64,000 bases of DNA from an uncultured Planctomycetales bacterium (GTDB lineage Bacteria; Planctomycetota; MHYJ01; JACPRB01), in contig CAYXVY010000337.1 in NCBI GenBank assembly GCA_964468745.1, positions 5,390 through 69,389 of the forward strand. The letters are read 5' to 3'. The notes under the pieces were generated by a model. The model was not told the DNA's origin and did no database searches. It saw nothing but the letters and a program-made list of their open reading frames with translations. The translations under genes were made by a program, and so were the position numbers. Below, one piece after another: positions 7,346 to 54,127 of this stretch (within the stretch, counting starts at the first letter, position 1; every line of letters begins with the position of its first letter).

Positions 7346-7454
7346 GCGAACCTCCGGATGAGATGGACGGATTGACTCTATCCCAAGCCCTCGCGATTTC
7401 GTACAAAAATATGGCGGACGGGTCTAAGATACCCCGCGCAATCCTTCTCTGGAG

Positions 7455-9083
7455 GTGCCCATGCGGCCGTTTCTCGCCATCGCGCTCGTACTTGCGGCGT
7501 TCGCGCCCGGATGCGACATAAAAAAGGGGCCTCCCGGCCGGCCGCCGGTCGTCCCGATGCTTGCCATCCAGGAAGAAGTGCTCCAGGACCGCGTCGCCCA
7601 CGCGAAGCAGCTGCTTGCAGACGCGGGCTACGCCGGAGGGAAGGGCTTCCCGAAGCTCGAGATCCTCTACAACACGGACGAGGGGCACAAGAAGATTGCC
7701 GCCGTCGTCCAGCAGATGTGGCGCAAGAATCTCGGCATCGACGTCGAGCTGCGCAACACCGAGTGGAAGGTGTATCTCGACGACCTGTCGAAGCTGCGCT
7801 ACCAGATCGCGCGCCGCGGGTGGATCGGCGACTACCGAGATCCGAACACGTTCATCGACATGTTCACGTCGCTCAGCGGAAACAACAACACGGGATGGAA
7901 GAACGCACAGTTCGACCAGCTCGTGAAGGACGCGTTCCGCGAGGCGGACAAGGTGAAGCGGCTGGCGATCCTGCGCGACGCCGAGAAGATCCTGATGACC
8001 GAGCTGCCGATCATGCCCATCTACTTCTACGTCTCGTCGAACTGCTGGACCGACAAGGTGAAGGGCGTGTACGCGAACATCCAGGACGTGCATCCGTTGA
8101 ACGAGGCGTACGTCGAGGGGAAGGACACGCTGATCATCAACAACGCCACCGAGATCCAGACGCTCGACGCCGGCCTGGCGCGCGGCGTTCCGGAGGATCG
8201 AATCATCAGCACAATGTTCGAGGGTTTGACGATTCGCGATCCGAAGACGCTCGACCCGAAGCCCGGGATCGCGCAGAGCTGGGAGGTTTCGGCCGATGGG
8301 CGCACCTACACGTTCCACCTGCGCGAGGCGCAGTGGAGCGACGGCAAGCCCGTGACGGCGGGCGATTTCGAGTACGCGTGGAAGCGCGTGCTCGATCCGG
8401 CCACGCCGACCGACTACGCGAGCCAGCTCTACTACGTCAAGGGCGCGGAGGATTACAACACCAAGAAGACGCCCGACGCTTCGAAGGTGGGGGTGCGCGC
8501 GCAGGACGATCGCACGCTGGTCGTCGAGCTCGAGAATCCGTGCGCGTACTGGCTCGATCTCTGCGCGTTCTTCACGCTCTATCCGGTGCGCAAGGATGTG
8601 ATCGACAAGCACGGCACGAACTGGACGCGCGCGGAGAACATCGTCGTCAACGGCCCCTTCAAGCTGAAGGAGCACAAGCCGAACGACTCGCTGACCGTCG
8701 AGAAGAATCCGAAGTACTACAACGCGGGCGTCGTGAAGCAGCCGATGGTCACGTTCCTGCCGATCGAGAACCGGCTGACGGCGTGGGGCCTGTACAGGGA
8801 CGGCAAGTGCGACTGGGTGACGTCGCTGCCTCTGGAGCAGATCGAGGAGATCATCAAGCGGCCGGATTATCGCGGCGACACGTATCTCGGCACGTACTTC
8901 TACTCGTTCAACGTGGAGCACGAGGCGCTGAAGGACAAGCGGGTGCGCAAGGCGCTCACGCTGGCGATCGACCGCGAAATCATCGTGAACAAGATCACCA
9001 AGCAGGGACAGAAGCCCGCGTACTGGTACGTGCCGCCGATCTGGGAGACGTTCAAGAGCCCGCGGTTCGACGTCAAGGATTGA
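7455..9083 (+). CDS. oppA: Oligopeptide ABC substrate-binding lipoprotein (family 5), circularly permuted
   Basis: Lipobox APG-C. OppA C-terminal lobe first (AKQLLADAGY..LYNT..HKKIA..RRGWIGDY), then the N-terminal part (EIQTLD..FEGL..WSDG.PVTA.DF..RVRKAL.LAIDR) from residue ~222. Confidence 0.9.
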   Translation: MPMRPFLAIALVLAAFAPGCDIKKGPPGRPPVVPMLAIQEEVLQDRVAHAKQLLADAGYAGGKGFPKLEILYNTDEGHKKIAAVVQQMWRKNLGIDVELRNTEWKVYLDDLSKLRYQIARRGWIGDYRDPNTFIDMFTSLSGNNNTGWKNAQFDQLVKDAFREADKVKRLAILRDAEKILMTELPIMPIYFYVSSNCWTDKVKGVYANIQDVHPLNEAYVEGKDTLIINNATEIQTLDAGLARGVPEDRIISTMFEGLTIRDPKTLDPKPGIAQSWEVSADGRTYTFHLREAQWSDGKPVTAGDFEYAWKRVLDPATPTDYASQLYYVKGAEDYNTKKTPDASKVGVRAQDDRTLVVELENPCAYWLDLCAFFTLYPVRKDVIDKHGTNWTRAENIVVNGPFKLKEHKPNDSLTVEKNPKYYNAGVVKQPMVTFLPIENRLTAWGLYRDGKCDWVTSLPLEQIEEIIKRPDYRGDTYLGTYFYSFNVEHEALKDKRVRKALTLAIDREIIVNKITKQGQKPAYWYVPPIWETFKSPRFDVKD

Positions 9084-9084
9084 C

Positions 9085-10020
9085 GTGCTGTCGTTCGTCG
9101 TCCGGCGCCTGTTCGGCGGGGTCATCACGCTCTTCGTGATCGCCACGCTCTGCTTCACCATCACGCGGCTTGCGCCGGGGAGCCCGTTCTCCTCGGAGCG
9201 CACGATGCACCCCGAGATCATCAAGAACTTCGAGGTGTTCTACGGCCTCGACAGGCCCATCCTTGTGCAGTACGGACGCACGATGTGGGGCTACCTGAAG
9301 GGCGACTTCGGCCCGTCGATGCACTATCGCGATCGGACGTGCAACGACTACGTGTGGCCGGGATTCAGGACGTCGGTCATCCTCGGCACGCTGGCGGGGC
9401 TGCTGGCGCTCGCCATTGGGCTGCCCCTTGGGCTCGTGGGTGCCGCGTACCAGAATCGCGCGCCGGACTACGCCGCGATGACCTTGTCCGTGATGGGCAT
9501 CTGCGTGCCGAACTTCCTCCTCGGGCCGCTGCTGGTCCTGCTCTTCACGTTCGGGCTCGGCTGGTTGCCGTCGGCACGCTGGCCGGAAGACTGGTCGCTC
9601 TCGGAGCTGCGCAAGCTCATCATGCCTGCGATCACGCTGGTCATGGTGCACGTCGCGTACATCTCACGACTCGGGCGCGCGGGGATGCTCGACGTGATGA
9701 ACAAGGACTACATCCGCACGGCGCGCGCGAAGGGGCTGTCGGAGTGGGTTGTCTTCCTCAAGCACGGGCTCAAGAACGGCGTCACGCCGGTCGTCTCGTA
9801 CGCGGGGCCGATGTGGGCGCTGATCATCACGGGTTCGATCGTCGTCGAGTCGATCTTCGCGCTGCCGGGGCTGGGGACGCACTTCGTGAAGTCCGCCATG
9901 AACCGCGACATGAACCTCATCATGGCGTGCGTGATGGTGTACAGCACGATCGTGATCTGCATGAACTTCCTTGTTGACATCGCGTACGCGTATCTCGATC
10001 CGCGGGTGAGGTTGAGCTGA
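9085..10020 (+). CDS. oppB: Oligopeptide ABC permease
   Basis: DYIRTARAKGLSE EAA loop; GSIVVESIFALPGLG. Confidence 0.95.
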   Translation: MLSFVVRRLFGGVITLFVIATLCFTITRLAPGSPFSSERTMHPEIIKNFEVFYGLDRPILVQYGRTMWGYLKGDFGPSMHYRDRTCNDYVWPGFRTSVILGTLAGLLALAIGLPLGLVGAAYQNRAPDYAAMTLSVMGICVPNFLLGPLLVLLFTFGLGWLPSARWPEDWSLSELRKLIMPAITLVMVHVAYISRLGRAGMLDVMNKDYIRTARAKGLSEWVVFLKHGLKNGVTPVVSYAGPMWALIITGSIVVESIFALPGLGTHFVKSAMNRDMNLIMACVMVYSTIVICMNFLVDIAYAYLDPRVRLS

Positions 10021-10928
10021 TGAGCCCGAGATCCTCTTTCGTGATCGACCCCGACGCCGCGCTGGCCGCGCCCGTCGGCCGCTCTCCGTCCCAGATGGCG
10101 CTGCGGAGGTTCATGAAGAACCGCCGCGCGCTCGTTTGTTTCTTCCTGCTCAGCCTGATCGGCGGGGCGACGCTCCTGGTCCCGTGGGTCACGCCGCACG
10201 ACTACCGCGACCAGGACTGGGACTACACGGGGGGCGAGCCGAACGGCAAGTACTGGATGGGGACGGACACGCTGGGGCGCGATCTGATGTCGCGCGTCTT
10301 CCTCGGCGGGCGGATCTCATTCGCGGTCGGATTCCTCGCGACCGCGGTGAGCGTCGTCATCGGCATCCTCTATGGCTCGCTGAGCGCGTTTCTCGGCGGG
10401 CGCGCGGACAATCTGATGATGCGGTTCGTCGACGTGCTGTACGGGCTGCCGTACATGCTCATCATCATCATCGTCATGGCGTTCCTGAGGACGAAAGACA
10501 TCGTCATCGTGTTCTGCGTGCTGGGCCTGTTCGGCTGGCTGACGATGGCGCGGATCGTGCGCGGGCAGGTGCTCTCGCTGCGCGAGCGCGAGTTCGTCGA
10601 GGCGGCGCGGGCGCTGGGCGCAGGCACATGGCACATCATCTTCAAGCACATGATCCCGAACATCATGGGGCCGGTGATCGTCTACACGACGCTCTCCGTC
10701 CCCGCCATGATCCTCTCGGAGTCGTTCATCTCGTTCCTGGGCCTGGGGATTTCCGAGCCCGAGACATCGTGGGGCATGCTGATCAGCGAGGGGGCGCAGG
10801 CACTCGGCGGCGACAAGAGCTACTGGTGGCTGACGACGTTCCCCGGCGCGTGCCTGGCGATCACGCTGTTCTGTCTCAACTCGATCGGAGACGGCTTGAG
10901 AGACTCCTTTGATGTCCAGCAGCGTTAG
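10020..10928 (+). CDS. oppC: Oligopeptide ABC permease
   Basis: MGTDTLGRD, REFVEAARALGA, ESFISFLGLG motifs. Confidence 0.95.
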   Translation: MSPRSSFVIDPDAALAAPVGRSPSQMALRRFMKNRRALVCFFLLSLIGGATLLVPWVTPHDYRDQDWDYTGGEPNGKYWMGTDTLGRDLMSRVFLGGRISFAVGFLATAVSVVIGILYGSLSAFLGGRADNLMMRFVDVLYGLPYMLIIIIVMAFLRTKDIVIVFCVLGLFGWLTMARIVRGQVLSLREREFVEAARALGAGTWHIIFKHMIPNIMGPVIVYTTLSVPAMILSESFISFLGLGISEPETSWGMLISEGAQALGGDKSYWWLTTFPGACLAITLFCLNSIGDGLRDSFDVQQR

Positions 10929-12492
10929 GTTTGCGCTCGTCCTTCTGCTGCTTGTCGGCTGCGACAAGTCCGGCGCCGGGCTCCCGACGACAAGCGACCC
11001 GAGGATCCTCGAGGCGCGCAAGTTGCTCGCCGACGCGGGATTCCCGGAAGGCAAGGGGTTCCCGAAGCTCGAAGTCCTGCACAACGACGCCGACTGGCAC
11101 AAGAAGATCGCCGCCGCGATCCAGGAGATGTGGCGCAAGCAGCTCGGGATCCAGGTCGAGCTGCGCAGCGAGGAGTGGAAGGTGTTCCTCGCCAATCGCG
11201 GTGCCGGGAAGTTCCAGATCGCGCGCGGCGGATTCACCGGCGAGTATCGCGACCCGCACGCGTTCCTGCGTCTCTTCGCCAGCGACAGCGGATTCAACTC
11301 GACGAAGTGGTCGAGCCCGGAATTCGACCGGCTGCTGCTCGCGGCGAACGACGAGCTCGATCCGGCGAAGCGTTACGCAATGCTGGGGAAAGCGGAGCGG
11401 CTGCTCCTCGACGAGGCGCCGACGTTTCCCGTCTTCCACTATGTAGGCCACAACTGGATGCGTCCGTTCGTAAAGGGGGTGCAGCCGAACTACCGCGACA
11501 TGCATCCGATGCAGCACGTGTGGATGGATGGCGAGGGGACTCCGAAGGACGGCGTCCTCCTCTTCTTCGCCGGCGAGGAGGCCGGGACGCTGGACCCGGG
11601 ACTCTCTCACGACATGCGCGGCCTCAAGACCGCGATGGCGCTCTTCGAGGGACTCGTGCAATACGACCCGAAGGATGCGTCGCCGATGCCCGCTGTTGCC
11701 GAGCGCTGGGAGATTTCTCCCGACGGCCGCACCTACACCTTCCATCTGCGTGACGCGAAGTGGTCGAGCGGCGACGCGGTCACGTCGGAGGATTTCGTCT
11801 GGTCGTGGCGTCGCGTCATCGATCCCGCCACGGCGTCGCAGTACAAGGACCTGATGTACTACGTGAAGAACGGCCGCGCGATCGCGAACAAGGAGAAGCC
11901 GAAGGAGGAGCTCGGCATCCGCGCGCCGGACGCGAAGACGGTCGTCGTCGAGCTGGAGCGTCCGACGCCGTACTTCCTGTCGGTGCTGTGCCTCAACGTC
12001 TTCTTTCCCGTGCATCGAGCGACGGTCGAGAAGCACGGCAAGGACTGGACGCGCGTGGAGAACATCGTCAATAACGGGCCGTTCCGCATTACGGCGTGGA
12101 GGATCAACGACCGGCAGGTGTTCGAGGCGAATCCCGCCTATCGCGCCGCGGGCGACGTGAAGCTGAAGAAGTTCGTGTGGCTCACGGGGAGCAACTTCTC
12201 GACCGCGTGGAACCAGTACATCGCGGGTGAATGTCATTGGACCTATCAGTCGCCGAACGAGCTGCTCGAGGAGGCCGTCAAGCGGCCGGATCACCAGGCG
12301 GCGCCCTACAACGCGAGCTACTTCTACGTGTTCAACGTGACGGTCAAGCCGCTCGACGACGTGCGCGTGCGTCGTGCGCTCTCGCTGGCCGTCGATCGCG
12401 ACGTGATCACGAAGCACGTGGTGAAGGGGGGCGAGACTCCCGCCGATCGCATCACGCCGAAGTCTCTGTATCCCGAGTACGAAGTGAAATGA
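10912..12492 (+). CDS. oppA: Second circularly permuted oligopeptide-binding lipoprotein
   Basis: Lipobox LVG-C, then EARKLLADAGF..RGGFTGEY.. first; EAGTLDP..FEGLV..KWSSG..VRRALSLAVDR after residue ~208. Confidence 0.9.
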   Translation: MSSSVRFALVLLLLVGCDKSGAGLPTTSDPRILEARKLLADAGFPEGKGFPKLEVLHNDADWHKKIAAAIQEMWRKQLGIQVELRSEEWKVFLANRGAGKFQIARGGFTGEYRDPHAFLRLFASDSGFNSTKWSSPEFDRLLLAANDELDPAKRYAMLGKAERLLLDEAPTFPVFHYVGHNWMRPFVKGVQPNYRDMHPMQHVWMDGEGTPKDGVLLFFAGEEAGTLDPGLSHDMRGLKTAMALFEGLVQYDPKDASPMPAVAERWEISPDGRTYTFHLRDAKWSSGDAVTSEDFVWSWRRVIDPATASQYKDLMYYVKNGRAIANKEKPKEELGIRAPDAKTVVVELERPTPYFLSVLCLNVFFPVHRATVEKHGKDWTRVENIVNNGPFRITAWRINDRQVFEANPAYRAAGDVKLKKFVWLTGSNFSTAWNQYIAGECHWTYQSPNELLEEAVKRPDHQAAPYNASYFYVFNVTVKPLDDVRVRRALSLAVDRDVITKHVVKGGETPADRITPKSLYPEYEVK

Positions 12493-12519
12493 GCCGCGGG
12501 CGGAGCGAGGATCGAACCG

Positions 12520-14232
12520 CTACTTCTCGAGTCGCACGTTCTGCAGCAGGATCCGCCCCATGGGATTCAGCGATAGCTTCACGTTGGACTTCGCGACGAT
12601 GAAGTCGCCCCCCGTGTGCAGCGGCACAATCGCGCCCCCTTCGGCGAGGAGCGACGCCTCCGCGCGCGCGAGGAGATTGAGCCGGGCCGCCGCGTTTGAC
12701 TCACGGCCGGCCTCGGCGAGCAGTTTCCCTGCATCGCCGGTCGCGAAGGGCGCCAGGAAGGCGGCGGGATCGAACGTCGGGCCGCTCCAGACGCCGTACG
12801 CGAGATCGTAGTCCGCGGCGTCGAGCGCCTCGCGATACGCCGGCCACTCGCGCAGGTCGAGCCGGATTGCAATGCCGAGGTCCTTCTCCAGCTGCTCTTT
12901 CATCGCGATCACGACACTCTGATGCGATTTCGGGCCGAGAAAATTGAGCCGAGGGAACTTCGTGAGATCGGGCTGCTCGGCGAGGAGATGACGGATCGCA
13001 GCGGTGATGTCCTGGACCGGAGCGGACGCGCCGACGTACCCGGGGCACCCCGGCGGAACGAGGCCGACTGCCGCTTCACATCCCGTACCGGCCTGCTTCA
13101 ATACCCTCGACCGGTCAATCGCGAGGGCGATGGCCGCGCGGATCTTGCTCGACGCGCACGGCCCTTTCGCTGCGTTCAGACTCAGATGCCACATCGTGAA
13201 CGTCGCGAACGGCCGCACGTCCCCCTTGCGGACGAGCTCGGGCACGCTCTCGGGCGGGACGAGATCGCGATCGATCCACTGCACCTGTCCTCGCGCGAAC
13301 GCTTCCAGCGCGCCCGCGATGTGAGCGCCGAGGACCAAGGTCACACGTTCCGGACCCGCCGGTCCCGCGCGCAGGAGCGTCAGCTCGTCTCGTGTCCACT
13401 TCTCAACCCGGTACGCGCCGTTCGTGGCGATGTTCTGCGGATGCGTCCATTGATCGAGCTTGCGCTCGACGATTTGCGCCGGCACCGGAAGAAAGGCGGG
13501 CCCGGCAAGCTCCTCGAGAAGGGTCGGGGACGTCGCCGCGAGCGTCACGCGCAGCGTCCGCGCATCGACCGCTTCCGCGCCGATCGCGCGCTCGTCCAGG
13601 TCGGGTCGCGTCGCAGCTTTCGCGGCCTCGTCGAGTGCGGCGCGGACGGCCGTCTCCCGTTCCGCCTCCGCCAGACCGCGGATGGCATTTGCATGCCGTT
13701 GGGTCGCGCGATCCTTCCAGCGGTTGGCGATCGCGAGACGTTCCGAGGCAGGCTGCGAATCGAACGTGAGCAGCTCCTGGTCGAGGCGCCGGTCTTCCCA
13801 GAACGCCAGGGCGCCGCGCACGGGCGCAAAAGCGAAGACCGTGGCGCTGCCGGTCTCCGGTCGAAGCACGCGACGCCAGGCGTAGACGAAATCGCCCGCC
13901 GTCACCGGCGCGCCGTCGGACCACTTCACGTCGCGCAGATGAAACGTCCACGTGAGGCCGTCCTGGGAAGTTTCCCAGCGCTCGGCCGCGCCCGCGATGA
14001 CGGACGTTCCGTCCGGTCCGAAGGTCGTGAGTCCCGTGAAGAGCGAGAGCGCGAGGCGGGTCGTAACGATACCGGCCCCCGCGTGCGCGGGATCGAGCGA
14101 GCGGGGCGTGCCCCAGGCGACGCGAAGCTCGTTCGACGCCGGGTCCCTGTCCTGAGCGAGCGCAGGCGAGTCGAAGGATTGCAGGAGGACGAGCAGGGCA
14201 AGCGTCGCGAATCTCATGTCTCTTATGGACAA
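12520..14232 (-). CDS. Peptide ABC substrate-binding protein, canonical domain order, with a helical insertion
   Basis: PRSLDP..LFTGLT..WSDGAPVTAGDF..IRAAIALAIDR..DYDLAYGVW; extra ~70-aa segment after the VRGA region. Confidence 0.85.
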   Translation of the reverse strand: MSIRDMRFATLALLVLLQSFDSPALAQDRDPASNELRVAWGTPRSLDPAHAGAGIVTTRLALSLFTGLTTFGPDGTSVIAGAAERWETSQDGLTWTFHLRDVKWSDGAPVTAGDFVYAWRRVLRPETGSATVFAFAPVRGALAFWEDRRLDQELLTFDSQPASERLAIANRWKDRATQRHANAIRGLAEAERETAVRAALDEAAKAATRPDLDERAIGAEAVDARTLRVTLAATSPTLLEELAGPAFLPVPAQIVERKLDQWTHPQNIATNGAYRVEKWTRDELTLLRAGPAGPERVTLVLGAHIAGALEAFARGQVQWIDRDLVPPESVPELVRKGDVRPFATFTMWHLSLNAAKGPCASSKIRAAIALAIDRSRVLKQAGTGCEAAVGLVPPGCPGYVGASAPVQDITAAIRHLLAEQPDLTKFPRLNFLGPKSHQSVVIAMKEQLEKDLGIAIRLDLREWPAYREALDAADYDLAYGVWSGPTFDPAAFLAPFATGDAGKLLAEAGRESNAAARLNLLARAEASLLAEGGAIVPLHTGGDFIVAKSNVKLSLNPMGRILLQNVRLEK

Positions 14233-49473: not shown

Positions 49474-50904
49474 TTACGATCCGCGTTCGGCGCTCGGGGG
49501 GGCCTTCTTCAGCTTCTGCCCCTCTTTCGTGTCCTCGACGTGCCAACCCTTCGCCTTGATCGCGTCGCGGAGTTGATCGGACTCCTTGAAGTTCTTCGCC
49601 TTTCGCGCCGCCGCCCGCTGATCCGCGAGCGCGACCACCTCGGGCGGAGCCTGGTCATCGGAGGTGTCGAGAAAGCCGAAGACCGAATTGAATCTCTCCA
49701 GGGTCTCGAGCGCGCCGGGCACCGCGGCGCCGCGGTCGAGCGAGCGGTTGACGTCCGTGACGAACTCGTGCACCGCGCCCAGGGCGCCGGCGACGTTAAG
49801 GTCGTCGTCCATCGCAGACGTGAAGGCGGCCTTCGCCTTCGTCGCCGCCTCGGCGTCCGCGCCGGGAGTCGGTACGAGGCGGGTACGGAAATCCCGGAAG
49901 CGCTGGACGGCGGCTGCCGCGTCCTCGAAGCTCTTGAGCGTGTAGTTCACCTGCATCCGGTACTGCGTGCTCGTCAGCGCGTACCGGATGGCGTGGGGCG
50001 ACCACTGCTTGAGCAGGTCCGCGACGGTGAAGAACGTCCCGTCGGACTTGGACATCTTCTTTCCATTCCAGAGCAGGTGCCGCGCGTGCATCCAGTACCG
50101 CACGAACGGCTTGCCGTTGGCGGACTCGCTCTGCGCAATCTCGCACTCGTGGTGCGGGAAAATGTTGTCCTCGCCGCCGGTGTGGATGTCGAAGGTCTCG
50201 CCGAGATACTTCTTCGACATCGCCGAGCACTCGATGTGCCAGCCCGGGAAGCCGCGTCCCCACGGCGAGTCGAATTGCATGAGGTGCCCGGGGTCGGTCT
50301 TCCAGAGCGCGAAATCGGCCGGGTGGCGCTTCTCCGGATTCACGTCGACGCGCGCGCCCGCCTTCATCTGGTCCAGCGTGTTGTTGGACAACCGCCCGTA
50401 GGACGCAAACTTCGTCACTTCAAAGTAGATGTTGCCGCCGACGCGATACGCGAGACCCTTCCCGAGCAGCACCCCGATCATCTCGATCATCTCGGGGACG
50501 TGCGCGGTGGCCTTCGGGTAGACGTGCGCGTCGAGGAATCCGAGCGTGCGCCGCGCGTCCATGTACTCCTTCGTGAAGTGCTCCGCGACTTGGTAGGGGT
50601 CGTTGACGTTGACACCCTTCTCGCGCAGCCGGCGCAGTCCCTCTTCCATCTTGTCGACGCCCGCCTCGACATCGTCGCGGGTGAGATGCCCGACGTCGGT
50701 GATGTTCATCACCTGCGTGACGGCGTGGCCGGTGTACTCGAGATACCGCCGCAGCGTGTCGGCGAAGAGAAACGTGCGGAAGTTCCCGACGTGCGGAGAG
50801 TCGTACACCGTGGGCCCGCAGTTGTAGACCCGGACCTTGCCCGCGTCGAGGGGCTGGAAGTCCTCGAGCTTGCGCGTGAGCGAATTGAAGAACCGCAGGG
50901 GCAT
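49474..50904 (-). CDS. cysS: Cysteinyl-tRNA synthetase
   Basis: CGPTVYD..HVGN, GFPGWHIECS, HHECEIAQS, KMSKS. Confidence 0.98.
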   Translation of the reverse strand: MPLRFFNSLTRKLEDFQPLDAGKVRVYNCGPTVYDSPHVGNFRTFLFADTLRRYLEYTGHAVTQVMNITDVGHLTRDDVEAGVDKMEEGLRRLREKGVNVNDPYQVAEHFTKEYMDARRTLGFLDAHVYPKATAHVPEMIEMIGVLLGKGLAYRVGGNIYFEVTKFASYGRLSNNTLDQMKAGARVDVNPEKRHPADFALWKTDPGHLMQFDSPWGRGFPGWHIECSAMSKKYLGETFDIHTGGEDNIFPHHECEIAQSESANGKPFVRYWMHARHLLWNGKKMSKSDGTFFTVADLLKQWSPHAIRYALTSTQYRMQVNYTLKSFEDAAAAVQRFRDFRTRLVPTPGADAEAATKAKAAFTSAMDDDLNVAGALGAVHEFVTDVNRSLDRGAAVPGALETLERFNSVFGFLDTSDDQAPPEVVALADQRAAARKAKNFKESDQLRDAIKAKGWHVEDTKEGQKLKKAPPSAERGS

Positions 50905-51405: not shown

Positions 51406-52713
51406 ATGGTCATGTCGCTCCTTCTCCTCTGTTCGCTCGCGCTGCAGGGCTCTGCCGAGCTGGACGAAACAATTGCGATCGAGCGGCGCAAGATGGCGAT
51501 TACGCTCGAGGAGATGAGGGCGTGGGGCTGGGCGCGACTGGAATACCGCAAGCTTCTGCGGCTGGCACCCAAGGACGAGGTCGCTCAGCGGAAGCTCGTC
51601 GGCACCGAGGCGATCGCGCTGACGAACGAGAAAACCACGCCGGAACTTGTCAGCAAGTATGTGTCGATGCTCGCGGAGATCGCCCGCATCGCGGCGGACG
51701 GTCACGCGGCCTTGGCAAAATCGGGCGACGATGCGGAGCGCCATTGGCGGCTTGCGCTTCTCTACGCGCCCGCGCGAGAAGACGCCCTTGCGGCGCTCAA
51801 ATTCGCCGGCGGCAGCGATCCGATCTGGAAGGACGTCCGCTGGAAAGACCTGCTCGCGAAGGCGGATTCCGGCACGCCCGTTGACGAGAAGAGCGACCTC
51901 GAGACGAAGTGGTCGATCAAGACGACGAAGCGCGACGCGCCAAGCCTCGCATGGGAGGGTGTCGACGTCGAGCAGGACCACCTGCGCCGGCTCGCGCGCC
52001 AGGCGGAGGCGTCCGCGTCGCTGCTGCGGATTGCGCTCGGCGATGCGGAACTCAAGCCGTGCGTCAAGCGGATCGTCGTCATGACCGGCAAAGCCCCCTA
52101 TTCCCGCTACATCGACGACTTCGTCGTTGCGGACGATGCGGTGAAGAAGCTGCTCAAGAAAACCGGAGGGCTGCAGAACATCCAGCGCGACGAGTTCGTC
52201 GAGTTCGCGTTCGACAAGGGCTCCGACTGGCACGACCACAACATCGCGCACGCCGTGGGTGAGTTCGTACTCGCCTCCGCGCTCGGCAAACGCGACTACG
52301 ACGACATGCCCGCGTGGCTCAAGGAAGGGGTCGGTTGCCTCTGCGACATCCTCTTCCGCGGGAGCGTGAAGGCGTCCTGTGTCGAGGTTCCGACCGGCAC
52401 GGGCGCGGGTGACGTGCCGTGGACGGACTCGACACGCTGGGATGAGAATCTGAAGGGGCTCGTCGCGAAGGGGCGCGACCCGGAGCTGACAGACGTCTTC
52501 GCGGTGACGCTCAACGCGATGAAGGGGGACCACCGCGCGAAGGCGGCGAGCGTCGTCAGGATGCTCATCTTGCGCTGGCCGGCGGGTTTTCGGGCGATCG
52601 TTGCCGGGGTGCGGAAGGAGGGGGCGATGTCTCGCGGCGCCTTCGAAGCGGCGCTCGGCATCACCATCGAAGAGCTCGACGAGTTCTGGCGACGCTGGCT
52701 GCGGGGCGCGTGA
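51406..52713 (+). CDS. Secreted hypothetical protein, possibly with a zincin-like C-terminal domain
   Basis: Signal MSLLLLCSLAL-Q; HAVGE and P.WL.EG-like segments seen in MA-clan peptidase-like domains. Confidence 0.65.
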   Translation: MVMSLLLLCSLALQGSAELDETIAIERRKMAITLEEMRAWGWARLEYRKLLRLAPKDEVAQRKLVGTEAIALTNEKTTPELVSKYVSMLAEIARIAADGHAALAKSGDDAERHWRLALLYAPAREDALAALKFAGGSDPIWKDVRWKDLLAKADSGTPVDEKSDLETKWSIKTTKRDAPSLAWEGVDVEQDHLRRLARQAEASASLLRIALGDAELKPCVKRIVVMTGKAPYSRYIDDFVVADDAVKKLLKKTGGLQNIQRDEFVEFAFDKGSDWHDHNIAHAVGEFVLASALGKRDYDDMPAWLKEGVGCLCDILFRGSVKASCVEVPTGTGAGDVPWTDSTRWDENLKGLVAKGRDPELTDVFAVTLNAMKGDHRAKAASVVRMLILRWPAGFRAIVAGVRKEGAMSRGAFEAALGITIEELDEFWRRWLRGA

Positions 52714-53090
52714 TGCTGATCGCTCTACTCGTCGCTGCAGCGTTCGGCGCGGCGCTGTCGATCTACACGTTGCGCGTGATGGCCTGCGGGGGCGACGCGT
52801 GCGATTTCGTGATGTCGAGTCGATTCGCGCGCGTCTTCGGATTCCCGAACGCGGCGCTCGCGCTGGCATACAACGTCGCGCTGATGGCGTTCGCGTCGCT
52901 GCGCCTGGCGCACATCGCTGTGCCGCTCTGGCCTGCGCTTGCGGCGTGTGCGGCAAGCCTCGTCATGACGGCCTATCTCGCGTTCGCGCTGCTCGTTCGC
53001 GTGAAGCGGACCTGACGGCTCTGAATCGCGGGCTACGCGATCAACGCGGCGGTCGCCGCGATCCTCGGCGCGCTCTGGTTCTACAGCTGA
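52713..53090 (+). CDS. Vitamin K epoxide reductase (VKOR)-family protein with U-x-x-U active site (candidate diseleno-protein)
   Basis: Loop CGGDAC.FVMSS..ARVFGFPNA.L...Y; TM; then KRT-TGA(53013)-R-L-TGA(53022)-IAGYAIN and a final TM to the TGA at 53088. Confidence 0.85.
53025..53060 (+). promoter_or_regulatory. Two tandem SECIS-like hairpins
   Basis: AUCGCG-GGCUA-CGCGAU (53025-53041) and CGCGGC-GGUC-GCCGCG (53045-53060). Confidence 0.6.
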
Positions 53091-54127
53091 AGCAGGGGCA
53101 GCAGCCTGTTGGGCGACTGCAGCATCAGGAGCGAGAGCGACGTCGCATACGCACGGCAGCAGAGGCAGTACTCGATCGTCCACGAGCCGTCGGCGTTCTG
53201 GATCTTGACGAGCTGGCCGCGCAGCTTCGGAAACCACTCCTTCCACGCCGGGCCGTTCTCGTGGAGCAGCGCCATGACGGCGTAGAATCCGCCGCAGTAG
53301 TCCCATTCCGAGATCTTGCCGCCGTAGTCGTCGCCGAGCTTCTTGCCCACGAGGACCTTCACGCCCGCCGTGACTTCCTTCATGTCGCCGCGGCCCATGC
53401 CGTACAGGATGCGCAGGCCCGCGGAGGTCGGATAGAACATCTGGCCGCCCCCGCCGCGCACCGACGGGTGCTGATCGAATCCGCCGGAGGGGTGCGCGCA
53501 GCTTTTTACGAACTTCTCGACCTTCGAGATGCTCGCGTTCTCAACGACGGCCCCCGAGTTGTGCGCCGCCCGAAGCGCCAGCCAGACATTGCACGTGATC
53601 GCCAGGTCGGAATTTCCCCCCGACCCCTGTGCGTCCCACCCGCCGTCCTTGTTCTGCTTCCTATAGAGGTAGGCGAGCGCCTTGCGAAGGGCGGCCGCGA
53701 GCGGCTCGGAATCCTCCTGCGGGTCCTGCATTCCGTAGAACTCCGCGAGCGCGAGGGTGGCGCAGGAGTGATCGTAGAAGATGCCCATTCCGGTCGAGTC
53801 GTGCTGCGTGATCTCGCCGGAATTCTTCTGGATCGCGATCATCTTCGCGATGGCGCGCGTGATGGCTTCCTTGTGCGGCCCGCGCGACGGCGTACTCCCC
53901 TCGGCGGCGAGCGCAAGCGCGGACAGGGCCGTGATGGCCGTTGAAGGCGCGCCCGAGCGTTCGCATCCCCACAGGCCGTCGGGATTCTGGTTCTTGAGAA
54001 GCCAGTCGATCCCCTTCTTGATGGACGCCTCGGCGTCGAGCGGCTTTTCGGGGACGGATTTGTCGTCCTGCGGCCACACCGATGCGGCACCCGTCACCAT
54101 CAGCAGGAGCGCCAGTCGTAGGGCCAT
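53081..54127 (-). CDS. Secreted prenyltransferase/squalene-oxidase-repeat protein
   Basis: KGIDWLLKNQNPDG.W, QNKDGGW, QNADGSW QW repeats; signal peptide. Confidence 0.85.
   Translation of the reverse strand: MALRLALLLMVTGAASVWPQDDKSVPEKPLDAEASIKKGIDWLLKNQNPDGLWGCERSGAPSTAITALSALALAAEGSTPSRGPHKEAITRAIAKMIAIQKNSGEITQHDSTGMGIFYDHSCATLALAEFYGMQDPQEDSEPLAAALRKALAYLYRKQNKDGGWDAQGSGGNSDLAITCNVWLALRAAHNSGAVVENASISKVEKFVKSCAHPSGGFDQHPSVRGGGGQMFYPTSAGLRILYGMGRGDMKEVTAGVKVLVGKKLGDDYGGKISEWDYCGGFYAVMALLHENGPAWKEWFPKLRGQLVKIQNADGSWTIEYCLCCRAYATSLSLLMLQSPNRLLPLLQL

Follow-up and report, generated by a model that had tools for sequence, protein, structure and literature searches.

The active-site cysteines of the vitamin K epoxide reductase (VKOR) family have been described as absolutely conserved or invariant (PMC7895805, PMC4555120), and a phylogeny of the family published in 2015 termed the CxxC motif invariant and did not mention selenocysteine (Sec, U) (PMC4555120). 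In human VKOR, C135 is the residue of this motif that attacks the substrate, to which it becomes covalently linked in an intermediate; C132 resolves this intermediate and exchanges with the loop cysteine C51 (PMC7895805). Outside of the VKOR family, the replacement of both cysteines of a CxxC motif by Sec (UxxU) has been described, and for Group 4 [NiFeSe] hydrogenases it has been suggested that one Sec insertion sequence (SECIS) serves both UGA codons (PMC13582414). Here, we analyzed a gene of the VKOR family on a stretch of 64,000 nucleotides of an uncultured Planctomycetales bacterium (contig CAYXVY010000337.1, positions 5,390 to 69,389 of the forward strand; the whole stretch is called the window in the following). 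Both codons at the positions of the catalytic CxxC are TGA. We consider it probable that the gene encodes a membrane-bound thiol:quinone oxidoreductase of the VKOR family, in which UGA encodes both residues of the motif, most likely as Sec (U101-R-L-U104).

The frame that starts with the ATG at position 52713 comprises 100 sense codons, TGA, CGG, CTC, a second TGA, and 21 further sense codons (IAGYAINAAVAAILGALWFYS), before it ends at a third TGA. The codons after the second TGA begin with ATC GCG GGC TAC GCG ATC AAC, and 14 more sense codons precede the stop codon. A mechanical list of open reading frames (ORFs) ends the gene at 53015. The N-terminal half of the protein contains C25-GGDA-C30, VMSS, and FGFPN. 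The features of the gene are the following:

52713-53090, plus strand: recoded VKOR-family ORF, 125 codons plus stop, M1...T100-U101-R-L-U104-IAGYAINAAVAAILGALWFYS, based on translation, Pfam and PDB profile alignment
52785-52802, plus strand: loop cysteine pair C25...C30 (CGGDAC), equivalent to the VKOR shuttle cysteines (human C43/C51) and aligned with the loop of Synechococcus VKOR
52815-52820, plus strand: S35-S36 codons of the VMSS motif, the conserved Ser/Thr past the loop cysteines, aligned with DLVLSS of 4NV6
53013-53015, plus strand: first in-frame UGA (UGA1), codon 101, at the first Cys of the catalytic CxxC (human C132 position)
53022-53024, plus strand: second in-frame UGA (UGA2), codon 104, at the second Cys of the CxxC (human C135 position, the quinone- or epoxide-attacking residue)
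53088-53090, plus strand: true TGA stop of the recoded ORF, within a 10-nt overlap (53081-53090) with the 3' end of a convergent gene

For the Pfam search, U was written as C in the read-through protein. It matched the VKOR family (PF07884) with 50.9 bits (cut-off 27.5) over profile positions 4-131 of 134. The 100-residue cut-off product alone scored 40.2 bits and its match ended at profile position 113, so that the read-through adds 10.7 bits. NCBIfam release 20 contains no model dedicated to this form, and a generic VKOR model gave only 14 bits. A family profile was then aligned with the sequences of the PDB, and its segment '...LRraCklCvagyalna' was paired with 'LRQFCMYCTTAIILVA' of Synechococcus VKOR (4NV6, 4NV2, 3KP9). 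The UGA positions fell on the CxxC of the Synechococcus motif LRQFCMYC (4NV6, 3KP9) and likewise on the CxxC of the Takifugu VKOR-like protein, 'LKDLCVICVTTYALN' (6WV9), while the profile loop 'C..agsCdlvlS' was paired with 'C..GGCDLVLSS' of Synechococcus VKOR. In this alignment, the two UGAs therefore coincide exactly with the catalytic CxxC, and C25/C30 coincide with the shuttle cysteines; as the codons are TGA, they are equivalent to CxxC only if they are decoded as Sec or Cys.

For the structure, a Cys-form relative, P0002, was used as the model, which is about 57-58% identical to the window protein and has an IspF neighbour in common with it. Its AlphaFold2 (AF2) model (mean predicted local distance difference test, pLDDT, 94.5) contains the helices 2-26, 47-66, 74-98, and 103-126 and a short loop helix (33-36), and the CxxC starts helix 4. 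In a Foldseek search of the PDB with this model, the 14 best matches were all VKOR structures, with query TM-scores (TMq) of 0.66-0.81; the value for 3KP9 was 0.81, with a root-mean-square deviation of 2.6. As predicted from its sequence and this model, the gene product is a 125-residue VKOR-family protein with four transmembrane (TM) helices. An initial annotation had read the gene as a VKOR homologue, with the loop cysteine pair (CGGDAC) and VMSS in its N-terminal half, both TGAs on the catalytic cysteines, and a frame continuing past the TGA at 53015 to that at 53088. The frame reads as it had described; the alignment to the Pfam profile, which it had proposed as a check, together with the profile alignment to solved VKOR structures and the fold of the Cys orthologue, bears out the remaining points.

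To compare the codons at the two positions, relatives were collected by several searches. In the following, L-numbers denote loci and P-numbers denote proteins; P0001 is the window protein, P0003 belongs to L001, P0002 to L006, and P0004 matches L007. A word-indexed protein search returned two relatives, P0003 and P0002. P0003 (61% identical, five contigs) is annotated with 100 residues, and its DNA reads RRF-TGA-AAG-CTC-TGA-VAGYATTAAVAALLTVMALR-stop; the DNA of P0002 (127 residues) reads RRW-TGC-AGC-TAC-TGC-VAGYAST... A metagenome scan added L007, which is of the UxxU type. The order CysS-IspF-VKOR-...-FHA protein is common to the window, L001, and L007, and IspF-VKOR is kept in L006. Among these syntenic neighbours, CysS is 74% and 57% identical and IspF about 71%. 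Judged from gene order and sequence, the CysS-IspF-VKOR loci of the window, L001, and L007 and the IspF-VKOR pair of L006 are orthologous, and UxxU and CxxC (TGC-x-x-TGC in L006, the IspF of which is 71% identical to that of the window) therefore interchange within one syntenic gene.

With the Cys form as the query, 1.84 billion cluster representatives were searched exhaustively by HMMER, which gave the 152 nearest representatives at 50% identity. Fourteen of these stop right before the first Cys and six stop after C-x-L, right before the second Cys (20 of 152 in total). Cys is present at both UGA positions in L006, L102, L103, L011, and 113 further representatives. The DNA was seen for 10 of the 20 representatives that end at one of the two positions (eight fetched, P0001 of the window, and P0003 of L001), and all of them stay in frame beyond the TGA. 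In addition to the window, L001, and L007, the following Sec-type genes were found by protein searches:

L012, UxxU: LRAG-TGA-PW-TGA-VTGYALTAAVAA...; gene context differs
L018, UxxU: LRQT-TGA-RQ-TGA-LIGYGLNAAVAA...
L019, UxxU: LRRF-TGA-KL-TGA-VSGYALVAAVAV...
L098, UxxU: LKET-TGA-TV-TGA-VLGYAVNAAVAA...
L099, UxxU: LKAP-TGA-RL-TGA-LAANGINVAVAA...
L100, UxxU: LKIW-TGA-LL-TGA-LVAQAINAAVAA...; AT-rich gene
L015, CxxU: KQPCPL-TGA-MMGHSLNAAVAA...
L101, CxxU: RVWCGL-TGA-MLSHVVNVAILI...

TGA-x-x-TGA is thus present in nine protein-found lineages (window, L001, L007, L012, L018, L019, L098, L099, and L100). Nine of the 14 representatives ending at the first position were checked on the DNA level; all were UxxU and none was UxxC. 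The second codon is TGA in every Sec-type relative, UxxU and CxxU alike, and TGC in L006, L102, L103, and L011.

A scan of GTDB with an alignment of three protein sequences gave no match. A DNA-pattern scan of one GTDB genome per species (UGA2, Gly-Tyr/His, and a hairpin, part of which is fixed by the pattern) gave 78 sites, 20 of which were VKOR genes with an in-frame TGA. Three of them were UxxU, namely L020 (a metagenome-assembled genome, MAG, of Acidobacteria) and L053 and L069 (two Planctomycetia MAGs); L053 was the nearest GTDB carrier, 51.5% identical over 99 residues. CxxU was found in 17 genomes (eight Rokuibacteriota, two Methylomirabilota, four Acidobacteriota/Vicinamibacteria, and three Planctomycetota), and with L015 and L101 the number of TGY-x-x-TGA lineages is about 19. 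In all Sec-type relatives, the frame past the UGAs is open and conserved (xxG[YH]AxNAAVAA...), and TGA occupies the same two codons across many lineages and assemblies at 35-60% protein identity.

A protein search with a Rokubacteria-type sequence gave 313 clusters at E <= 1e-10. Of the 120 clusters listed (P0153-P0272), practically every one has a query coverage of exactly 83%, i.e. it ends at the TGA; one cluster among the matches listed occurs on 92 contigs, and the listed clusters bear the names 'uncharacterized membrane protein' or 'hypothetical protein'. Judged from these sequences, the Rokubacteria-type VKOR genes are systematically mis-annotated, which concerns hundreds of entries. One Rokubacteria-type protein, P0170 (149 aa, on a 906-bp contig of ENA), reads LRQPCPL-R-IAGHVLHAAVAA, and thus has an Arg codon at the Sec-TGA of its relatives, with the rest of the frame and AAVAA intact. 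Either a variant introduced by sequencing or a real change from Sec to Arg may account for this codon.

These data bear on the explanation that the gene is a pseudogene, or that only the 100-residue product with three helices is made, so that the TGAs would be real stops caused by mutation or sequencing error. All public gene calls end at the first or second TGA and carry the names mentioned above, as this explanation would have it, and Sec machinery was not seen within the window. However, the recurrence of the two TGA codons in independent lineages and assemblies and the conservation of the downstream frame at the protein level speak against it, the nucleotides of a hairpin in this frame are conserved down to synonymous sites, termination of 20 of 152 representatives at exactly two positions is unlike decay, and a 100-residue product would miss the entire active site. 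We regard this explanation as very improbable. The initial annotation had argued that two nonsense mutations at precisely the two catalytic codons are unlikely, had proposed to look for TGA/TGC/TGT interchange among relatives, and had named missing conservation after the first TGA as an outcome that would speak against its reading; TGA-x-x-TGA, TGY-x-x-TGA, and TGC-x-x-TGC were all found, the downstream frame is conserved, and the argument has gained weight from the recurrence. A chance origin of the TGA pair is excluded by this comparison, and not by folding energy.

The hairpin just mentioned is located inside the coding region, downstream of both UGAs:

53045-53060, plus strand: hairpin 2, the likely SECIS, CGCGGC-GGUC-GCCGCG, -10.8 kcal/mol, 26 nt from UGA2 to the loop and 35 nt from UGA1 to the loop

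The consensus model of bacterial SECIS elements demands a loop of 3-9 nt with a G in its initial two positions, a stem of 4-16 bp, a distance of 16-37 nt from the UGA, and a minimum free energy of <= -7.5 kcal/mol (PMC13188914). When these values were applied by hand, hairpin 2, with its stem of 6 bp, agreed with all of them for both UGAs. The SECIS of E. coli fdhF likewise has GGUC as its apical tetraloop. The region from the first UGA onwards was aligned without gaps for 27 Sec-type genes, 20 of which had been found with the hairpin-fixing pattern, and RNAalifold returned hairpin 2 (6-bp stem, GGUC loop) as the sole consensus element. The pair of alignment columns 36-51 was C-G in 21 genes, G-C in two, U-A in one, and a mismatch in two; the pair 37-50 was G-C in 24 genes and G-U in two; and the pair 39-48 was G-C in 25 genes and A-U in one (GCA...GCT in L015, two synonymous changes). 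The changes at 36-51 and 39-48 are thus compensatory.

Because the GTDB pattern fixes part of the hairpin, Sec-type and Cys-type genes were compared only among the protein-found genes. In 10 of the 11 Sec-type genes, 5-6 of the 6 pairs and the GGUC loop were present in identical register, while hairpin 2 was found in none of the four Cys-type genes (L006, L102, L103, and L011), which have 3-4 chance pairs and other loops. The chance that all 10 hairpin genes land in the Sec group of the 15 genes is 11/3003 = 0.004, a value that was calculated by hand and is indicative only, as the sequences are related. The AT-rich L100 gene keeps the element as GCG GCG GTC GCC GCC. The encoded peptide AAVAA is specific for the Sec forms; the Cys forms have variable residues instead. 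The CxxU gene L101 (532-810) is without the GGUC hairpin and has another hairpin of 7 bp, GCCACGU-CGUGA-ACGUGGC, which begins 7 nt past the UGA; its sequence suggests a second SECIS type within the VKOR family.

A further hairpin is located between UGA2 and hairpin 2:

53025-53041, plus strand: hairpin 1, AUCGCG-GGCUA-CGCGAU, -8.0 kcal/mol, z = -3.3, starting directly past UGA2 and 9 nt past UGA1

Both UGAs could be Sec codons that each have a SECIS of their own, hairpin 1 (GGCUA) for UGA1 and hairpin 2 (GGUC) for UGA2. The stability of hairpin 1 in the window and the G in the initial two positions of its loop would fit such an arrangement, as would its start 9 nt past UGA1, which is near the geometry of E. 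coli fdhF. The syntenic relatives have retained it, L001 with an A-U pair changed to G-C in a compensatory manner and L007 with a shorter stem that contains a bulge, and the local stability past UGA2 averages -6.2 kcal/mol in UxxU versus -3.9 kcal/mol in CxxU genes (one-sided p = 0.059, uncorrected for relatedness). However, hairpin 1 is weak or absent in six UxxU genes (L012, L018, L019, L020, L069, and L098) and equally strong in the CxxU gene L035, which is without a first UGA. Across the 27 relatives, pairing of hairpin 1 extends to only 62% of the cells, and the RNAalifold consensus does not include it. Its stem is made of the codons xxC-GCG...YAC-GCG, which are self-pairing whenever Ala is encoded by GCG, and its loop lies 15 nt past UGA1, slightly below the 16 nt of the model. 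We therefore consider separate elements for the two codons unlikely. As a clade feature, hairpin 1 is strong only in the clade of the window, with L035 also carrying a strong one, and the alignment does not support two SECIS elements as a feature of the family; in the clade of the window, hairpin 1 may assist recoding as a helper for UGA1. The initial annotation had described two SECIS-like hairpins at offsets of +16, +36, and +27. The offsets are correct when they are counted from the A of each UGA, and both hairpins exist; the one with the GGUC loop is conserved, but the one with the GGCUA loop did not hold up family-wide.

In Rfam, no family matched either hairpin. A hit to the frameshifting pseudoknot ALIL (RF01497) at positions 52970-53058 (plus strand) of the window, which spans the end of TM3, the UGAs, and the hairpins, reached 28 bits against a gathering threshold of 50 and was regarded as a chance match in GC-rich sequence.

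The genetic code of the organism has to be considered as well, because UGA might be reassigned to Trp, Gly, or Cys or be read through unspecifically, in which case the SECIS would have no role. UGA reassignments are known in some bacterial lineages (see, for example, PMC13462651). However, TGA is the stop codon of 16 of 44 probable genes of the window, including the VKOR gene and its upstream neighbour, which argues against reassignment. Most lineages with a known UGA reassignment have small genomes of low GC content, and the window has about 65% GC. In addition, the in-frame TGAs align with Cys in the homologues and not with Trp or Gly, and they are accompanied by a hairpin at a fixed position. 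This explanation thus appears extremely improbable. Five other junctions of ORFs in the same frame were found in the window; two of them are TGA (22814 and 39078), both like ordinary gene ends, and the rest are TAA, TAA, and TAG.

Several points weigh against Sec at both positions with hairpin 2 as the SECIS. The covariation statistics are weak. In 79-130 of 500 trials, shuffles scored as high as the real alignment, and these controls are not significant because the majority of the stem positions show no variation and part of the hairpin had been predetermined by the pattern. The folding energy of the whole 63-nt region equals that of shuffles at about 65% GC (z = -0.18). The distance to the base of the 6-bp stem is 20 nt for UGA2 and 29 nt for UGA1, and the spacing in E. 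coli fdhF is shorter, about 11 nt. We know of no experiment in which a single bacterial SECIS was shown to act on two UGAs that lie 9 nt apart. No selA, selB, selD, or tRNA-Sec was found within the 64-kb window by Pfam searches of its approximately 40 probable genes, ARAGORN, and Rfam; tRNA-Ala alone was detected by the latter two. Selenium in the VKOR protein is so far a prediction from the sequence. Lastly, tRNA-ReC-like genes occur in about 56% of the genomes with UxxU hydrogenases versus about 2.3% of other Sec-type genomes (PMC13582414).

The last point leads to the explanation that a Cys-charged tRNA-Sec-like tRNA (tRNA-ReC or SelC*) decodes one or both UGAs as Cys in a SelB- and SECIS-dependent manner, so that the enzyme would be CxxC, CxxU, UxxC, or a selenium-dependent mixture. 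The same doubt has been voiced for closely spaced UGAs (PMC13582414), and a conserved SECIS fits the tRNA-ReC route equally well. However, no tRNA-ReC-like tRNA was found within the 64 kb, though 64 kb says little, and the close orthologue that needs Cys simply has TGC (L006). To maintain costly UGA codons and a SECIS merely for Cys would also be less parsimonious than Sec. We judge this possibility quite unlikely. The use of Sec is documented in phyla that carry the Sec-type VKOR genes, since Sec machinery occurs in some Planctomycetes (PMC4807772) and selenoproteins occur in Acidobacteria (PMC1794560), and we count this, as far as the sequences assign the genes to these phyla, in favour of Sec. 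In a Rokubacteria MAG, a CxxU VKOR gene is preceded, about 670 nt upstream, by a 'tRNA-Ile (gat)' of 88 nt according to ARAGORN (L052, 6406-6493); no tRNA was found there by Rfam at the gathering threshold, and the call is probably false.

Sec at both positions thus remains the reading that we prefer. The hairpin at 53045-53060 would recruit SelB with Sec-tRNA-Sec, and this single SECIS probably serves both UGA1 and UGA2, because the distances of 26 and 35 nt are both within the range of 16-37 nt of the model. By analogy with the human and Synechococcus enzymes, electrons would be transferred from a periplasmic thioredoxin-like or DsbA-like partner to C25/C30, then to U101, to U104, and finally to the quinone. 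No thioredoxin or DsbA-like partner was found by Pfam among the approximately 40 probable genes of the window. U104 would attack the bound quinone, and the oxidized state would be a diselenide, which would be reduced again by the loop cysteines. At the quinone-reactive site, Sec would be expected to be a better nucleophile and a better leaving group. A lower redox potential, which would favour the reduction of low-potential quinones, and a poorer oxidation of thiols would also be expected.

CxxU would put Sec at the attacking position, and UxxU would add Sec at the resolving position. A stepwise evolution from CxxC via CxxU to UxxU with reuse of one SECIS is proposed, because the register between the SECIS and UGA2 is kept in both Sec types and all nine first-position enders checked on the DNA level were UxxU. 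An initial introduction of Sec at the second position also fits the role of C135 as the attacking residue (PMC7895805).

In three UxxU relatives (L012, 233-619; L019, 192-564; and P0015), the loop between TM1 and TM2 is free of cysteines (e.g. ...RLQPRAAEGSIFRTPYARVFG...), and this absence excludes the canonical four-cysteine relay for them. Such members would have no redox residues other than the two Sec, and their reaction cycle would have to differ from this relay.

The most far-reaching version of our reading combines all of these elements: one intragenic SECIS directs Sec to both UGAs and creates a diselenide/diselenol site in a VKOR/DsbB-type membrane quinone reductase, the family has been missed by the catalogues and is common in Rokubacteria/Methylomirabilota, Acidobacteriota, and Planctomycetota, and the Sec pair makes up the only redox residues in members that lack the loop cysteines. 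For this combination, we hold the chances of being right and of being wrong to be evenly balanced.

The genes around the VKOR gene are the following:

49474-50904, minus strand: CysS, syntenic neighbour, kept with IspF in L001 and L007
50908-51387, minus strand: IspF (YgbB), syntenic neighbour, kept beside VKOR in relatives
51406-52713, plus strand: upstream 435-aa ORF without a Pfam family, the TGA stop of which (52711-52713) overlaps the VKOR ATG
53081-54127, minus strand: convergent gene for a 348-aa protein with squalene-hopene-cyclase/prenyltransferase repeats

The start codon of the VKOR gene shares bases with the stop codon of the upstream ORF (GTGATG). The 435-aa protein has a hydrophobic N-terminus that resembles a signal peptide. 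No homologue of it was found in L001 or L007; in both of these syntenic loci, VKOR comes directly after IspF, and on this comparison the ORF is context rather than a conserved partner. Other genes of the window encode proteins with N-methylation motifs, a Ser/Thr kinase that carries PQQ repeats, and an FHA/CAP/HEAT protein; this gene content and the nearest GTDB carrier, L053, would both point to Planctomycetota. A cluster at 7428-14232 contains the genes for three solute-binding proteins of family 5 along with two ABC permeases (Opp/Dpp type) and lies beside a GH3 glycosidase and AnmK, an ordinary context of peptide or muropeptide uptake and recycling.

The literature was searched for earlier descriptions of a VKOR selenoprotein. 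VKOR, vitamin K, epoxide, and PF07884 are absent from a 2026 review of 119 prokaryotic selenoprotein families, as is DsbB (PMC13188914). The paper on BSepDB, which has 111 families, does not contain VKOR, vitamin K, or PF07884 in its main text (the supplementary family table lies outside this statement), and neither does the deep-Sep paper; VKOR, vitamin K, and epoxide are absent from the 2008 study of the Global Ocean Sampling (GOS) data, and VKOR and vitamin K from a 2022 review. Full-text searches for VKOR together with selenocysteine, selenoprotein, or SECIS gave unrelated papers only, with subscription literature and a survey of selenoproteins in groundwater MAGs outside their coverage. 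A VKOR selenoprotein, as proposed here from the sequence, thus appears to be missing from the accessible text of the current catalogues; the replacement of Cys by Sec in a redox CxxC itself is an established theme.

If our reading is true, Sec takes the place of one or both of the active-site cysteines of VKOR, which were deemed invariant, in a considerable group of bacteria from the environment, and a membrane-embedded, quinone-reducing enzyme would join the selenoprotein families, for which there is no counterpart among the names in the table of the 2026 review. The natural series of CxxC, CxxU, and UxxU within one orthologous group would allow the role of selenium to be compared at the quinone-attacking and the loop-exchanging residues. 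The locus would also be a compact case, with two UGAs 9 nt apart and a hairpin of 16 nt, for one bacterial SECIS serving two codons, and hundreds of entries of about 100-130 residues named 'hypothetical' or 'uncharacterized membrane protein' would be mis-truncated VKOR genes. This would be of interest to specialists for selenoproteins and for VKOR/DsbB enzymes.

Among the known systems, the functional analogue of bacterial VKOR is E. coli DsbB, which is likewise a four-helix membrane protein with a CxxC beside the quinone and a second periplasmic Cys pair (PMC4555120). It belongs to another Pfam family, its helix order differs, and no sequence match was seen. Human VKORC1 and the Takifugu VKOR-like protein (6WV3-6WVI) share the fold and the four redox positions with the window protein, and the G-Y-A past UxxU corresponds to T-Y-A past CxxC; by homology, the second redox residue would be the one that attacks the substrate (PMC7895805). 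However, the identity to the vertebrate enzymes is only about 20%, Sec would take the place of Cys, and, by analogy, the substrate is probably a respiratory quinone instead of vitamin K epoxide.

The initial annotation had called UxxU rare and known from selenoprotein L (SelL). SelL has a UxxU redox motif that is able to form a diselenide, but by its description it is a soluble Prx-like protein with a thioredoxin fold from aquatic eukaryotes (Shchedrina et al. 2007, as cited in PMC2398784), unrelated in sequence and fold. The rarity stands, but the motif is not confined to SelL, as it is also established in bacteria, in a Prx-like thiol:disulfide oxidoreductase (GOS), the metal-binding NF041115 family, the FmdB family, and the large subunit of Group 4 [NiFeSe] hydrogenases (PMC13188914, PMC13582414). 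As in the VKOR genes, UGAs three codons apart replace a CxxC in these bacterial proteins, the SECIS lies downstream of the second UGA, and CxxU and UxxU occur within one family; in SelL, the SECIS is located in the 3' untranslated region. The folds and functions of the bacterial UxxU proteins are different (soluble redox proteins and metal ligands of hydrogenases), and they include neither a member of the VKOR family nor a quinone reductase.

The closest relatives are the bacterial VKOR proteins, DsbB-like disulfide-generating quinone reductases such as that of Synechococcus (3KP9/4NV2/4NV5/4NV6) and that of Mycobacterium tuberculosis. They have in common with the window protein the PF07884 domain, the four-helix bundle, the loop Cys pair followed by Ser, and, where TM4 begins, the positions of the redox pair within L-[RK]-x-x-C/U-x-x-C/U. 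The window protein differs from them in that it is a minimal core of 125 aa, without a fifth helix or a fused thioredoxin domain, and some of its UxxU relatives (L012 and L019) differ in that they are without loop cysteines. Above all, the two active-site residues are encoded by UGA, and part of TM4 (NAAVAA) would be constrained by an RNA hairpin.

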